Positions 42,475-46,897 of a DNA stretch of 64,000 nt are shown piece by piece. Below the pieces are notes generated by a model. That model was not told the origin of the DNA. It saw only the letters and a list, made by a program, of their open reading frames with translations, and made no database searches. Within the stretch, counting starts at the first letter, position 1, and each line of letters begins with the position of its first letter. Location: assembly GCA_963802185.1 (NCBI GenBank), contig CAWDHU010000017.1, positions 278,759-342,758 on the forward strand. Reading direction: 5' to 3'. This DNA comes from an uncultured Bacteroidales bacterium (GTDB taxonomy: Bacteria > Bacteroidota > Bacteroidia > Bacteroidales > UBA4417). The position numbers and the translations under genes are program-made.

Positions 42475-43767
42475 TTATTTCACAATCATTTTACGAGCAA
42501 TCATATTTTTTCCTGCTTGTATTCTAACCATATACATTCCTGAAGGTAGTTCTGAAACAGGAATTTTTAATGTGGATAAATCTTCTGCCTGAATTTCAAA
42601 TTTCTGATTCAGTACCATACGGCCTGACATATCAAGTACCGAAATCATAGCAACCCTTGATTTCCCCGGATTAATTACAAGATTCATTACATCACTTACC
42701 GGATTTGGATAAATCGCAGCATTGAAACCCGATTTCTCAATTCCCTTAACAGCGGTTAAAGATACCTGCTGTGTTTCCATTTTGATGCGACCAGTAGAAC
42801 TTCCAGCAAAATTTGTAAAAACGAGTTTATATATGTTTCCCGCTCTATTCTGAACAAAATAGGCTACAGAATCAGCTATTTCATATGCAAATGTTGTCAT
42901 ATTGAATGATTTCCATTCCCATCCTATTGGTGAACGGGTCGAATCCATAACCTGTGGTTCTGTCATTAGGAAATCAGGAGCAACATTTTCGAATTTAGCA
43001 ACCTTTACTTTATAGTTATTCAATACTCCGGTAACAGGGTAAAGTGACCCTGCATTAGGACTTGTTAAAGGGTAAGTGTACATATATTTGGTAAAGAGAA
43101 TATCCCATTGATCGGAAACAACAGGTTCAAAATCAACCACCTCATTAGATTTAATGGAGAAACCGACAAAGTTTTTTAAAGCATATGGGTTACAATCAAG
43201 TTGATTTGTAATTTCACCGGTTCCATCAAGCTTAGCGAACCGGAATTCAAAAATGTTTTCGCTTGAATATTTTTCCATAATCCAAAGTTTCCGAAAGGTT
43301 CCATCACGTAGTTTGATAATGAACAATGAATCGCCCATAACATTATGAGATACAGAGTTGTATTTACCCCAACCATAATCAGGATGACCTTTCTGATTCC
43401 TGCAAAACGCACCTTCTTCCCAGTCAGTGGTTGAATTTACCATCACCTTCCAGCTACTAAGCCCGCTGGTATCAACTGTAGCCCATCCGCTGGTATCAGT
43501 TTTGGGGTAGGAATATAATTCAACGCCCGAACCATCATTGGTAAGTATGCTTGCGCTCATCCTGTTTGCCCTGAAAGCGATATCCCATTGAGCGCGGGCA
43601 ACCGAACCCTGTTCGCCGGCCGACATGCTGTAATATATTTCATTACTATAACTTGCGCCCATAAATACGGAATCAGTTACTGTGCCGGCAAATTGACCCA
43701 TAGCAGGGACTATTCCGGCAAAAGTGGTTGCTAGTAAAGCAACAAAAGTGTAAACCTTAGTTTTCAT
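42475..43767 (-). CDS. HmuY-like protein with a T9SS type-A C-terminal sorting domain
   Basis: Sec signal; QWDIAF and QWDILFTKY, YPVTGVL, IGWEWK, YKLVF shared with 38948-39961; CTD IYPNPVSD...LPSGMYMVRI...KMIVK. Confidence 0.8.
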   Translation of the reverse strand: MKTKVYTFVALLATTFAGIVPAMGQFAGTVTDSVFMGASYSNEIYYSMSAGEQGSVARAQWDIAFRANRMSASILTNDGSGVELYSYPKTDTSGWATVDTSGLSSWKVMVNSTTDWEEGAFCRNQKGHPDYGWGKYNSVSHNVMGDSLFIIKLRDGTFRKLWIMEKYSSENIFEFRFAKLDGTGEITNQLDCNPYALKNFVGFSIKSNEVVDFEPVVSDQWDILFTKYMYTYPLTSPNAGSLYPVTGVLNNYKVKVAKFENVAPDFLMTEPQVMDSTRSPIGWEWKSFNMTTFAYEIADSVAYFVQNRAGNIYKLVFTNFAGSSTGRIKMETQQVSLTAVKGIEKSGFNAAIYPNPVSDVMNLVINPGKSRVAMISVLDMSGRMVLNQKFEIQAEDLSTLKIPVSELPSGMYMVRIQAGKNMIARKMIVK

Positions 43768-43902
43768 TTATATTAATTTTTAGTTTGTATTTTTTAATGA
43801 ATTTCAGCTTTTCCCGCCTGGGTAGAAACTCAAAATCGCAATGCGATACATACGTCATACACAAAACTGAATTTGTGCAGTAACAATATCGATTCTAAGA
43901 AA

Positions 43903-44274
43903 TTATGCTGAAGGAGGGCCTCTGAGAGTTAAGGCCTTGAGTCCCTGGTAGAGAACCGGGGAATCGGACAAAATGGGTTGAAATGAAACTACTTCAATAT
44001 AAGCAACTTCTGAAACATGCTGATCAGGTGTAGTAAAATCAAACTGCAATCCTGAATTGAAGTTTATTGTCTTGCTATCATTTTTGAAACCTATTGAAGA
44101 ATTTTCATCTTTATATCTTGTAGATGAACAAGCTACAGGAATAAGTTGCTTACCCCAGATATGATGTTGATGAAAATTAACCAGGTTACCCAGGTAAATC
44201 CAAACCACTGCCACAGCCCATCCGATTAGGATAGTTTTGCGAAGTACAGATTTGGTTGAACTTAAGTAACTCAT
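43903..44274 (-). CDS. Putative regulatory uORF/arrest peptide (TM + HQHH + C-terminal RGPP)
   Basis: 123 aa: N-terminal hydrophobic helix, NFHQHH, ends LRGPPSA*. First gene of the TBDT operon. Confidence 0.75.
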   Translation of the reverse strand: MSYLSSTKSVLRKTILIGWAVAVVWIYLGNLVNFHQHHIWGKQLIPVACSSTRYKDENSSIGFKNDSKTINFNSGLQFDFTTPDQHVSEVAYIEVVSFQPILSDSPVLYQGLKALTLRGPPSA

Positions 44275-44649
44275 AATTAATCTCTGATTGAGGGTGCAAA
44301 GTTGTTTATTTTTTAGAAGTAAAAAACATTTTGACGAGTTTTTTTTAAGGGAATATTAAAAAAAACAAATTGAATGACATATATCAATGAAAACGAAAAT
44401 AAAAGCTACTACAATAATGATTTATAACATACAAAATTATTCAAGATGACTATTCAGAACAGAAATTAAAAGCAATAGATTTAATATAAATATCTGTATT
44501 TCATGTGATTGAATAATATTACAATAACCAACAGATTGGTTAAACACTATTTCATCAGAATAAATAAAAAAAAATCCATCAATTGAAATTTTTTCCTCAA
44601 CTGATGGAAAATATGTATTAAAATCTTACAAATCAGGAAACCCCGAGGC

Positions 44650-45156
44650 CTATAATTTAGCTTCTTTTTTAATTTGTTTTACCCAATTCTTAATTCTTTC
44701 CTCCGTCAATTCCTTCTGTGTATCATCATCGATTGCCAGACCAACGAACTTTCCGTCTTTTTCTGCTGTGGAATAATAAAAATTATATCCCTTTATTGAT
44801 GTGTACCCTACGACATTTTCTTTATGTGGCAAGCGGCAGAATATAGTACCCATACCGTCTATAAAACTCTCGGGATACATTTTCTGATCTCCAAGGCCAA
44901 ATAATGCGATTTTTTTGCCGGCAAGGTCTGATTCGACAAGCTTATCAATAAAGCGTTCCCAATCCGAATGCATTTCGCCTATACCCCATGCTGCTGTTCC
45001 TAATACAAGGAAATCATATTTTTCAACATCGAGTTTTGTGGCACTTGCAACATTGTGAACAGTAGCCTGGTCACCTAATAATTCCTGTATTTTACGGGCC
45101 ACTTTTGCAGTGCTCCCGTTATCTTTACCCCCAAAAAAAATTCCAATCTGTGACAT
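44650..45156 (-). CDS. Long-chain flavodoxin
   Basis: IGIFFG, LGTAAWGIGE, IALFGLGDQKMYPESFIDGMG, FVGLAIDDDTQ, ERIKNWV. Confidence 0.93.
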   Translation of the reverse strand: MSQIGIFFGGKDNGSTAKVARKIQELLGDQATVHNVASATKLDVEKYDFLVLGTAAWGIGEMHSDWERFIDKLVESDLAGKKIALFGLGDQKMYPESFIDGMGTIFCRLPHKENVVGYTSIKGYNFYYSTAEKDGKFVGLAIDDDTQKELTEERIKNWVKQIKKEAKL

Positions 45157-45288: not shown

Positions 45289-46269
45289 ATGAAACAGCTT
45301 TACTTCTATTTTGTTTTACCTCAACTCTTAATTTCGCTTTTACTTTGGAGTGTTATAGTTTGCGAAACAGGTATTAGTTTAAGCAGCGCTTTAGGGTTAT
45401 TCCTGATAATTGTTTTAATTTTACTAAATCTTAAAACAGCCAGCCATATTCAGCGTTTGCGGAAAAACCTGATTAATATCGAAAATGGGTCATTAATTAA
45501 TATCGATAGTAAAGGGAATGGGATTTTTGCTGAATTAAATCAAACTTTAAAAAGTATTTTTCAACGAATAAGAAAACAGGAAACCGAGCTGCAGCGCGAA
45601 AAACTACGCAGGCTTCGCTCGGTGATTGATGGACAGGATCAGGAACGTAACCGCCTGTCGCGCGAATTGCACGATGGTATAGGTCAGTCGCTTATTGCTA
45701 TAAAACTGCAACTCGAAAATGCTGAAACACAGAATTATTCAATGATGCGGGCCGGGATTGATTCAGCTAAAAACATGATCGACATTACTATTGAAGAAGT
45801 ACGCCATGTTTGTAATGCATTGTTACCGGCTGCGCTCAACGAGTTTGGGATAGTATCTACGTTAAGAGCACTTTGCTCCGAATTAGGATCATTAGCCGGA
45901 TTTAAAGCTGTTTTTGAAAATACGGGTTCCCTGGATCGCATCTCTAAAAAGTCGCAAATATATTTATACCGCATTGCACAGGAAGCCCTGAATAATGTAA
46001 CAAAACACGCCAGAGCCAATGAAGTAATCATGAAACTATGCCGGATTAATAATATAGTTACGCTGGAAGTGACGGACAACGGAAAAGGCTTTATATTTGA
46101 CCCGGTTTCTTTTGCACAGCGAAATGGCCTGCAGAATATGCGAGAACGTACTCAATTGCTTGAAGGTGAATTTATAATTAACAGCCTGCCAGGTAAGGGC
46201 ACAACAATAAAGGTTTCAATACCTTATGATACTGGAAATGGAAAAAATCAAACTATTATTGGTGGATGA
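45289..46269 (+). CDS. Sensor histidine kinase (HisKA_3, NarX/LiaS-like)
   Basis: ERNRLSRELHDGIGQ, YRIAQEALNNVTKHA, DNGKGF, GLQNMRER, GKGT. Confidence 0.93.
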   Translation: MKQLYFYFVLPQLLISLLLWSVIVCETGISLSSALGLFLIIVLILLNLKTASHIQRLRKNLINIENGSLINIDSKGNGIFAELNQTLKSIFQRIRKQETELQREKLRRLRSVIDGQDQERNRLSRELHDGIGQSLIAIKLQLENAETQNYSMMRAGIDSAKNMIDITIEEVRHVCNALLPAALNEFGIVSTLRALCSELGSLAGFKAVFENTGSLDRISKKSQIYLYRIAQEALNNVTKHARANEVIMKLCRINNIVTLEVTDNGKGFIFDPVSFAQRNGLQNMRERTQLLEGEFIINSLPGKGTTIKVSIPYDTGNGKNQTIIGG

Positions 46270-46897
46270 CCACCAGCTTGTACGGACAGGAATTGCAAAT
46301 TTGCTGACAGGAGAACCAGGTTTTGAAATCATCGGGGAAGCTGCTGATGCAAAGGATTTGTTTGAATTACTTAAAAAGTCACACCCCGACATCACCGTAC
46401 TTGATATTGCTTTACCAGGAATGTCGGGCATCGAAATCACAAAAAAACTTCATTCTGATTATCCTGGTATCCGTATTCTCATTCTCTCGATGCACACATC
46501 TGAAGAGTTTATTTTTAATGCGATAAATTCGGGGGCAAGGGGCTATTTACCCAAAAACACTTCGCGCAAAGAGTTGATTGAAGCTATATATGCAATCCAT
46601 CGTGGTGAAGAATACTTTGCCGAAAGCATTTCGAATGTGATTTTAAAAAGTTACATTAAAAAGGCGAAATCTGACTCCACTGAAGATGAAAACAAGGAGA
46701 GTCTCCTGTCAAAACGCGAGATTGAAGTACTGAAACTATTTGCCGAAGGCATGACCAACCAGCAAATTGCTGATAAGTTATTTATCAGTATCCGAACCGT
46801 TGAGTCGCACAAAAACCATATCATGGCAAGGCTCGAATTGAAAACTACGGTTGACCTGGTTAAATTTGCTATCAGGAATAATATCGTTTTGCTCTGA
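46238..46897 (+). CDS. NarL/LuxR-family response regulator
   Basis: LVDDHQLVR, LDIALP, GYLPK, LSKREIEVL...IADKLFISIRTVESH. Confidence 0.95.
   Translation: MEKIKLLLVDDHQLVRTGIANLLTGEPGFEIIGEAADAKDLFELLKKSHPDITVLDIALPGMSGIEITKKLHSDYPGIRILILSMHTSEEFIFNAINSGARGYLPKNTSRKELIEAIYAIHRGEEYFAESISNVILKSYIKKAKSDSTEDENKESLLSKREIEVLKLFAEGMTNQQIADKLFISIRTVESHKNHIMARLELKTTVDLVKFAIRNNIVLL

Follow-up and report, generated by a model that had tools for sequence, protein, structure and literature searches.

The 123-amino-acid (aa) open reading frame (ORF) that stands in front of genes for HmuY-like proteins and a TonB-dependent receptor in an uncultured Bacteroidales bacterium is probably a sensory leader that acts in cis and belongs to the RAPP/RGPP type of arrest peptides. 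It lies on the reverse strand of a 64,000-nucleotide (nt) stretch of contig CAWDHU010000017.1 (assembly GCA_963802185.1, positions 278,759 to 342,758), which is referred to below as the window and from whose first letter positions are counted. Judged by sequence comparison, this leader's family is most plausibly a new variant, at family level, of the type represented by the arrest peptides CruR and CutF, standing outside of the families DUF2946 and DUF6769. The ORF had been singled out in an earlier inspection of the same DNA (hereafter, the original prediction) for its basic N-terminus, transmembrane (TM) segment, NFHQHH motif and terminal LRGPPSA, and all of these were found where that inspection had placed them. 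The protein sequence runs MSYLSSTKSVLRKTILIGWAVAVVWIYLGNLVNFHQHHIWGKQLIPVACSS...LTLRGPPSA-stop; the basic N-terminus (K7, R12, K13) is followed by hydrophobic residues 13-34 and then by NFHQHHIWGKQLIPVACSSTR, and approximately 60 more residues separate the latter from the terminal LRGPPSA.

The leader is a real, conserved gene. A word-indexed search returned 154 homologues, mostly of exactly 123 aa and with 53-86% identity, all of them unannotated or 'hypothetical' and derived from metagenome-assembled genomes of Bacteroidales or Lentimicrobiaceae. When 1.84 billion cluster representatives were searched exhaustively with phmmer, 73 of them matched at E<=1e-3 and 25 of these at E<=1e-10. Ratios of nonsynonymous to synonymous divergence (dN/dS) were estimated by an approximate Nei-Gojobori procedure from 130 locus pairs with synonymous divergence (pS) of 0.05-0.6, and these values are rough because pS was near saturation. 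The whole protein yielded 0.29, whilst residues 13-47, comprising the TM helix and the motif that follows it, yielded 0.08, i.e. strong purifying selection; the corresponding values were 0.43 for the protein spacer and 0.61 for the N-tail. The protein itself produced zero matches to Pfam (at E<=0.1) or NCBIfam families, none of 61 diverse family members matched DUF2946 or DUF6769 even at E<=1, and there was no match to PF11162 or PF20558 in the whole genome. A protein-atlas search with the leader retrieved only unnamed clusters and one lead, to DUF6769. The family is unannotated, and annotation pipelines label its members 'hypothetical protein'.

The predicted arrest motif is, across the alignments, the most constant part of the leader. 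Among 193 stored proteins, 190 have an F/M/I-H motif by a permissive pattern, which set it at the wrong place in a few cases, and R[G/A]PP was present in 188 of the 190 (152 RGPP and 36 RAPP); the two homologues without it look truncated or frameshifted. Conservation of RGPP among homologues had been proposed as a check of the arrest hypothesis, and these counts bear it out. The tail after the motif consists of 2 residues in 178 of the 188 proteins, of 3 in eight and of 4 in two. R118, G119, P120, P121 and A123 are invariant within a set of 29 close relatives, and across the 61 diverse members the only invariant residues are F34, H35, L44, R118, P120 and P121. At all 33 syntenic loci the leader ends in R[GA]PPxx before the stop codon. 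Over 34 loci the Arg is written as AGA, AGG, CGG, CGA or CGT, thus with both Arg codon families, the Gly as GGC, GGT or GGG, and each Pro with four codons; this synonymous variation suggests selection on the peptide and not on the RNA. Of the 73 distant representatives 69 were measurable, two others being without N-terminus and two without C-terminus. In these 69, RAPP (36) and RGPP (33) were about equally frequent and the distance from His35 to the Arg was 76-85 residues. Mean column identity was lowest in the spacer (0.18), higher in the His/IWGK motif (0.70, across 61 distant members) and highest in R[GA]PP (0.88). Both RGPP and RAPP have been described, in the accessible text of a survey, as versatile arrest cores refractory to EF-P, with RGPP as the most robust (PMC12992588).

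As a control, six-frame ORFs of the whole 5.5-Mb genome were considered. Neither RGPP nor RAPP occurs in any of the 3031 ORFs with a length of 200 aa or more (1.38 million residues in total), where composition would lead one to expect 5.7 and 5.6 occurrences, respectively. In all six frames only two ORFs of 50-250 aa bear R[AG]PP within their last 10 residues, and both of them are hydrophobic near the N-terminus and are followed by an operon with a TonB-dependent receptor. Beside the leader described here, this is a second leader of 109 aa, lacking any Pfam family match and located 229 nt upstream of the gene for an 815-aa TonB receptor, with no HmuY-like gene there. Like the 123-aa family, it has a TM helix followed by a conserved H-R-I-x-G-H, the terminus LRGPPxA and a long spacer before a TonB receptor gene; unlike that family, it has an invariant C-x-V-C, a CruR-like spacing of 44 residues and a different, 815-aa receptor. 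Ten homologues of the second leader keep CxVC and LRGPP, with 44 residues between CxxC and the Arg. Profile-profile comparison of the two families gave a probability of 88% (E 2.9e-6) over 35 columns that cover the TM helix and the His motif, which suggests a common chassis made of a TM segment plus R[AG]PP. It should be added that a GATCA-loop-TGATC hairpin with a T7 run occurs approximately 20 nt past the stop codon of the second leader.

AlphaFold2, supplied with the 61-sequence alignment, predicted one helix at residues 5-40, with the block-wise predicted local distance difference test (pLDDT) at 83-96 over residues 11-40, and coil past residue 40 (block pLDDT 51-71, with the spacer at approximately 51-66). 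Lys plus Arg residues averaged 3.15 in the N-terminal flank of the helix versus 1.51 in the C-terminal one, the former being the richer in 167 of 190 proteins. This bias points to a signal anchor of N-in/C-out topology, which would place His35 at the periplasmic interface. The predicted helix 5-40 and the charge bias together supply the N-terminal signal or TM segment of the RAPP/RGPP arrest-peptide class. The stretch between the motif and RGPP, earlier called low-complexity, is instead poorly conserved and predicted to be disordered.

All aligned sequences, 29 of 29 close and 61 of 61 diverse ones, have His35, and I39-W-G-K-Q-L44 and P46 are likewise invariant in the close relatives. The full FHQHH occurs in 67 of the 190 proteins, FHQNR, FHQHR, FHQHK, FHMNH and FHLNR being common in the others. 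The original prediction of an HxHH cluster and a Cys as the sensor was not supported, with Cys49 variable and His35 alone invariant; likewise, of the joint conservation of HxHH and RGPP expected upstream of related TonB-dependent transporters (TBDTs), the RGPP part held and the HxHH part did so only partly. The proposal that a His cluster senses metal or haem is reduced, on the alignments, to one candidate invariant interface His within a conserved motif.

Thirty-six leader loci were recovered from species-representative genomes. An HmuY-like gene directly follows the leader in 33 of them, in agreement with the claim that the ORF heads an HmuY-like/TonB-receptor operon, and in these 33 loci the leader is upstream, on the same strand and separated by an uncoupled spacer of 94-264 nt (mostly approximately 145 nt). 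Most of the 36 loci show the order leader, HmuY-like gene, TonB receptor gene, HmuY-like gene. In the three other loci, one contig ends 233 nt past the leader and two show no match. In the window, the 430-aa HmuY-like protein scored 41.4 bits with Pfam HmuY and 57.6 bits with Por_Secre_tail (cut-off 27 each), and the 748-aa receptor carries both Plug (77.1 bits) and barrel (87.3 bits) domains. The family profile matched 1 of 401 genomes in a phylum-wide sample, namely the window's own, and 16 of 201 genomes (15 of 167 genera) in an order-level sample, with one copy per genome. In divergent members the R[AG]PP terminus is retained, mostly along with the three cargo genes; some leaders stand before TBDT-HmuY instead (L059), and one (L061) before TBDT-HmuY-PepSY_TM. 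A genome of the same genus without the leader is also without a close receptor homologue (best identity 26%). In the order-level sample a receptor relative at E<=1e-80 was present in 27 of 201 genomes, and 12 of the 27 have a leader matched by the profile; of the 15 remaining receptor-bearing genomes 14 were examined, the contig of one being too short.

Several observations on these loci may be added. In two of these 14, the place of the leader in front of related HmuY-like/TBDT genes is taken by TM ORFs that end in RGPP, are very divergent and were missed by the family profile, namely L084 (G593:C1, 123 aa) and L090 (G407:C17, 117 aa); the former has SNFQVK in place of NFHQH. At a further locus, L053 (G546:C37), a divergent leader ending in LRGPPTA before the stop codon precedes genes for a TBDT, a major facilitator superfamily transporter, a radical SAM/HemN-like protein and an amine oxidase (protoporphyrinogen-oxidase-like), a set that looks like a porphyrin salvage cluster. 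The flavodoxin gene is the same-strand upstream neighbour of the leader in 27 of the 36 loci, which would fit an iron-limitation island.

The intergenic spacer that separates the leader from the HmuY-like gene was compared at the RNA level. In a 25-locus alignment the stop context TAATTTC is conserved, the stop codon TAA of the window's leader being at 43905-43903 (-). At a distance of 20-31 nt from the leader stop begins a hairpin with the consensus (T)GCACAAAA-loop-TTTTGTG(T). It was found in each sequence separately and then tested on a narrower alignment of 28 sequences, where 88.9% of cells are paired and seven of nine pairs changed on both sides; 0 of 500 shuffles reached the observed values and slid controls gave 31-71% pairing, with the caveat for all these statistics that the aligned sequences are related. 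RNAalifold, applied to a MAFFT alignment of the leader 3' end with the spacer, returned only a 5-pair GGCCU/AGGCC helix in the coding region with no compensatory change. As to the small spacer hairpins foreseen originally, ATCGC-ATT-GCGAT does exist in the window; it is not conserved, however, and the conserved hairpin is TGCACAAA-loop-TTTGTGTA. Distant loci hold other hairpins at this place, several with U-runs (L034, L056, L063 and the second leader, L066). A C>G bubble extends over the last approximately 160 nt of the leader, with C exceeding G in 34 of 34 loci at -80 (mean (C-G)/60 = 0.158), and a second one is found at +80 to +140. The genome has a Rho gene, and the leader/spacer C>G bubble is a possible Rho site.

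Within the coding region, the GGCCU/AGGCC hairpin, formed by the Ala114 and Gly119 codons, spans the arrest codons (43912-43935, (-)) and shows no covariation. The last 11 leader codons have a pS of 0.35 vs approximately 0.55 elsewhere, a decrease that hints at RNA-level constraint there. Other candidate structures were rejected. The sequence TTTCAT stands 4-6 nt before the ATGAA of the HmuY-like gene in approximately 11 of 25 loci (columns 201-217 of alignment A2; L005, L010, L014, L021, L023-L025, L028, L029 and L032), where the two could form a small start-codon hairpin; it is lacking in the window and in L013, and masking of the ribosome-binding site or start codon in the manner of CutF was dismissed as a general mechanism. 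The minimum free energy fold of the window pairs AGUUUCAUUU inside the leader with the HmuY-like start region, and conservation of this pairing was not found. A role of the spacer hairpin as a promoter was discarded as well, because its loop is not conserved and no TAnnTTTG is kept.

We infer the arrest, topology, ligand and coupling mechanism of the leader as follows. The N-terminal signal-anchor helix would target the nascent chain to the inner membrane in N-in/C-out orientation, placing the interface motif N-F-H-Q-H-x-I-W-G-K-x-L-I-P at the periplasmic face, and a tether of approximately 80 residues, variable in sequence and fixed in length, would join this motif to the peptidyl-transferase centre. 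The ribosome would then arrest at R118-G-P-P121, presumably while its A site is occupied by Pro-tRNA, as happens with ApdA and ApdP. How long it does so may be set by an event at the membrane-side motif, be it ligand binding, folding or pulling, and the length of the arrest would decide on whether transcription and translation go on through the 135-nt spacer into the HmuY-like, TonB-receptor and HmuY-like genes. The most likely route is premature-termination control in the spacer, which could be Rho-dependent as in CruR and/or aided by the conserved hairpin.

Two characterised systems provide the framework for this model. CruR of Bordetella pertussis (Bp2923, DUF2946/PF11162) is encoded upstream of the TBDT BfrG and, according to the accessible text of its description, carries a CxxC motif and RAPP three residues from its end, at a CxxC-to-RAPP spacing of 45 residues; five extra residues impaired regulation (PMC9426467). 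A ribosome stalled at RAPP prevents Rho from terminating transcription ahead of the TonB transporter gene, and the stall is relieved by copper; the rut site is a C>G bubble within cruR, and PepSY_TM genes follow cruR homologues (PMC9426467). Like cruR, the leader gene is small, stands first in an uptake operon and encodes an export or TM segment at the N-terminus, and in its product a conserved candidate sensor motif keeps a constant distance to a C-terminal R-x-P-P near the stop codon. The loci are alike in the long intergenic region before the uptake genes, the C>G-rich 3' part of the leader and the presence of Rho in the genome. Unlike CruR, the leader has no DUF2946 match and no CxxC, its candidate sensor being the membrane-interface N-F-H motif, and the distances are 76-85 residues with a 2-residue tail instead of 45 residues with a 3-residue tail; its family also uses RGPP as well as RAPP, with HmuY-like cargo and hosts among the Bacteroidota. 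Membership of the DUF2946/CruR family was rejected on the grounds that PF11162 matches neither the protein nor the 61 members nor the genome, and that CxxC is missing.

CutF of Rhodobacter capsulatus is exported co-translationally, and periplasmic copper prolongs its stalling, thereby opening a stem-loop that covers cutO's ribosome-binding site, as stated in the available parts of two reports (PMC9973294; bioRxiv 10.1101/2025.02.05.636593). The former lists 5,334 'CutF-like' proteins, 19% of them (40% after normalisation) from Bacteroidota, with TonB-like proteins as frequent neighbours and with two His-only clusters that adjoin HupE/UreJ (PMC9973294). A periplasmically exposed motif that modulates arrest at a C-terminal proline motif and thus controls the next gene is common to CutF and to the model proposed for the leader. 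The two differ in that CutF unmasks a Shine-Dalgarno sequence by stem-loop melting, and no such pairing is conserved at the leader loci; moreover, the published His-only CutF-like clusters neighbour HupE/UreJ, whereas the leader family neighbours HmuY-like genes.

The leader shares the architecture of ApdA, ApdP and ApcA, in which a small secretory or membrane protein carries the R-[A/G]-P-P core at its C-terminus and its gene precedes the one that is regulated (PMC12992588, PMC10951233, PMC10987492, PMC7897499). R[AG]PP motifs near the C-terminus of small secretory/membrane proteins were surveyed by Fujiwara et al., and the upstream ORFs concerned are, in the accessible text, enriched before TonB receptors 'universally' in Gram-negative bacteria (PMC12992588). 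The next gene at the leader loci is annotated as HmuY-like or hypothetical, and a survey sorting by next gene may therefore not file these loci under TonB. In the literature searched, supplementary lists not included, we did not find the family described, nor HmuY linked with stalling, arrest or a leader peptide. The original prediction had spoken of an undescribed His variant; His-only CutF-like clusters and R[AG]PP upstream ORFs before TonB receptors have been published, as have CutF-like proteins of Bacteroidota, so that this holds only in part, and the link to HmuY is what was absent from the literature found.

DUF6769 (PF20558) deserves a separate comment. The three examples considered, L068 (G299), L069 (G031) and L070 (G131), come from Bacteroidota and are small; each has a TM segment, then PHHHH and a stretch rich in Cys and His, and terminates in GLRAPPxx; in L068 and L069 the downstream sequence reads like a His-rich lipoprotein gene. 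By these sequence features DUF6769 is probably another uncharacterised family of arrest leaders, sharing with the present family the architecture of TM segment plus C-terminal R[AG]PP and the phylum. Homology of the leader with DUF6769 was nevertheless rejected, as hhalign aligned the last 13 columns only (probability 65%) and PF20558 matched none of the 61 members.

A number of points weigh against the sensory arrest leader. Only His35 of the proposed sensor is invariant, Cys49 being replaced in several close relatives, and the very divergent RGPP leader L084 carries Gln at the His35 position. The hairpin of the window's clade is without a proper U-tract. Going by known footprints, a stalled ribosome with Pro120 in the P site should cover mRNA to approximately the stop codon, and a terminating one to approximately +10. 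The conserved hairpin is situated beyond both and would be melted by neither, and anatomy therefore does not explain how the arrest would be read out. In the genome-wide control AGPP was found once vs 11.0 expected and KGPP once vs 10.3, with AAPP and KAPP found six times each; AGPP and KGPP are nearly as depleted as RGPP and RAPP, so that the absence of the latter two from large ORFs lends weak support. Twelve of the 14 receptor-bearing loci without a profile-matched leader show no R[AG]PP-terminated same-strand ORF within up to 3.5 kb upstream, and the leader would therefore be an optional regulatory add-on to this operon type. For the receptor, NCBIfam models of B12 and haemin receptors were the best, all far below their cut-offs. 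Finally, a spacer dN/dS of 0.43 together with an FDF motif kept in the protein spacer among close relatives indicates that the mature peptide may have a function itself.

This last point leads to the first alternative, namely that the ORF encodes a stable small inner-membrane protein acting in trans, as a partner of TonB/ExbBD, of an inner-membrane transporter or of the HmuY-like protein, with RGPPxA as a binding or processing motif. The low dN/dS of the TM helix and interface motif (approximately 0.08), that of the spacer among close relatives (approximately 0.43) with its conserved FDF motif, and the fact that the leader gene always accompanies the operon would all suit such a protein. We regard it as unlikely, since family-wide the spacer is hypervariable (0.18) and predicted to be disordered, the C-terminal tetrapeptide alternates only between the two strongest reported arrest cores and keeps a fixed 2-residue distance from the stop codon, and what comes next is a long structured spacer and not a coupled gene start. 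A different objection accepts the arrest and denies the ligand: insertion by SRP (signal recognition particle), Sec or YidC would release the stalled chain, and the leader would report insertion capacity or merely impose a fixed coupling delay. A signal anchor with a C-terminal RAPP-like motif is indeed the architecture of Sec/YidC monitors, as far as the available portions of the respective papers describe it (PMC10987492, PMC7897499), and beyond the one His no clear metal- or haem-binding motif is conserved. The monitoring substrates SecM, MifM, VemP, ApdA and ApdP, however, precede sec, yidC or secDF genes, whereas the leader precedes uptake genes for HmuY-like proteins and a TBDT; the identity of the interface motif (0.70) is far above the need of a generic signal anchor, and the TM helix, at approximately 85-105 residues from the arrest site, is presumably farther away than expected for an insertion pull. 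Taken together, this makes an insertion monitor quite unlikely.

It is also conceivable that the leader senses copper or another transition metal in the manner of CruR and CutF, and that the receptor imports a metal or metallophore and not haem. In the literature searched, all members of the class that have been characterised respond to copper, and His can ligate Cu, Ni or Zn. One divergent locus, moreover, has the order TBDT-HmuY-PepSY_TM, and PepSY_TM also follows cruR homologues in the accessible part of that study (PMC9426467). In contrast, the leader has no CxxC, Met-rich or His-rich cluster beside its one invariant His, and the second leader, with CxxC/RGPP at 44-residue spacing and another TonB receptor, is a better copper candidate. 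The cargo belongs to the HmuY family, with HemN-like and amine-oxidase genes in one clade, and flavodoxin is upstream in 27 of 36 loci; a sensor of this kind therefore appears very unlikely.

For the sensory arrest leader that we prefer, haem, some other tetrapyrrole or iron is the most likely signal, an assignment to which the cargo genes, the neighbouring flavodoxin gene and the FNR-type box with its link to cytochromes, described below, all point. Sequence searches of the PDB retrieved only sorting-domain matches for the HmuY-like protein and only plug-domain-level ones for the receptor, and these matches do not point to a substrate. To name haem or a tetrapyrrole specifically as the signal is a tentative suggestion, and we would rather doubt it than assert it. 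Just as tentatively, the leader might be the first nascent-chain sensor for haem or a tetrapyrrole, in which the interface His of N-F-H-x-x-x-I-W-G-K reports periplasmic haem or porphyrin through an 80-residue ruler. If this were true, a haem/tetrapyrrole arrest switch of an HmuY/TonB-receptor operon would be layered on FNR/CRP-type control shared with multihaem cytochrome genes and, together with the CxxC-type leader, Bacteroidota would be shown to have developed sensors for various nutrients from a single TM-plus-R[AG]PP chassis.

Extracytoplasmic small-molecule arrest sensors have so far been characterised for copper only (CruR and CutF), and surveys point to many further RAPP/RGPP leaders before TonB receptors. 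The present family is compact, with one helix, a short invariant motif, a length-conserved tether and RGPP, and its cargo suggests haem, tetrapyrrole or iron and not copper. Start sites of Bacteroidota are largely without Shine-Dalgarno sequences, and the phylum makes a read-out based on them unlikely. The family therefore offers a test case for what such leaders sense, for coupling to the peptidyl-transferase centre by tether length, and for the conversion of arrest into expression without an anti-Shine-Dalgarno switch.

Table. Positions of the leader ORF, its parts and the neighbouring features (window numbering, except for the second leader; T9SS, type IX secretion system)
Feature	Position	Strand	Basis
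Leader ORF, 123 aa, 123 codons, ATG start, ends LRGPPSA-stop	43903..44274	(-)	ORF reading, homologues
RGPP codons AGA GGC CCT CCT, predicted arrest site	43912..43923	(-)	sequence, conservation, PMC12992588
Predicted TM helix, residues 13-34, N-in/C-out	44173..44238	(-)	AlphaFold2, K+R bias
Membrane-interface motif HQHHIWGKQLIPV, residues 35-47	44134..44172	(-)	column identity, dN/dS
Variable, predicted-disordered protein spacer, residues 58-112, length conserved	43939..44103	(-)	column identity, pLDDT
135-nt intergenic spacer, leader to HmuY-like gene	43768..43902	(-)	sequence
Conserved RNA hairpin TGCACAAA-TTCAGT-TTTGTGTA, begins 23 nt past leader stop	43858..43879	(-)	28-locus pairing
Hairpin ATCGC-ATT-GCGAT, then TTTGAGTTT	43835..43847	(-)	fold; not conserved elsewhere
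HmuY-like protein, 430 aa, T9SS C-terminal sorting domain	42475..43767	(-)	Pfam
TonB-dependent receptor, 748 aa	39961..42207	(-)	Pfam Plug, beta-barrel, CarboxypepD_reg-like
Second HmuY-like protein, 337 aa	38948..39961	(-)	Pfam HmuY 43.4 bits, cut-off 27
Terminator-like hairpin after flavodoxin gene, 14-pair stem and T-run	44575..44608	(-)	fold
Flavodoxin gene	44650..45156	(-)	Pfam
Promoter -7-like motif CAACTTTG	44297..44304	(-)	sequence, 23/23 aligned loci
FNR/CRP-type box TTGATATATGTCAT, approximately 84 nt 5' of -7-like motif	44374..44387	(-)	23-locus alignment
Second leader, 109 aa	G000 C22:51641-51970 = L066:8142-8471	(-)	TM helix, HRIFGH, CAVC, LRGPPEA-stop

The region upstream of the leader was aligned for 23 loci, where its mean column identity of 69% is above that of the coding region. 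A ACAACTTTG-like sequence is kept in 23 of the 23 loci, and the -7-like motif was read by TAnnTTTG, which we take to be the Bacteroidota consensus. As the original prediction had it, the ORF is the first gene after a promoter-like motif; with the terminator hairpin of the flavodoxin gene upstream and CAACTTTG in front, the leader ORF would therefore be the first gene of its own unit. Farther upstream, the core ATTGATATATGTCA of the FNR/CRP-type box is near-invariant in the 23 loci, the box being assigned by what we presume to be the consensus, TTGAT-N4-ATCAA. Similar boxes in this genome precede two multihaem cytochrome c genes, one is located between a cytochrome c gene and a gene for a Crp/Fnr-family regulator, and another is upstream of a second Crp/Fnr-family regulator gene. 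The genes bearing the box look like a small redox- or haem-related regulon.

The boxes elsewhere in the genome, with the pattern TTGAT-N4-[AG]TCAA, are at G000 C26:357429, 359161 and 378687 and at C22:580601, and a conserved half-site ATCAAT stands approximately 27 nt 5' of the FNR/CRP-type box of the leader. Divergent from the flavodoxin gene, a histidine kinase and a LuxR-type response regulator are encoded as a pair at window positions 45289-46897 (+).

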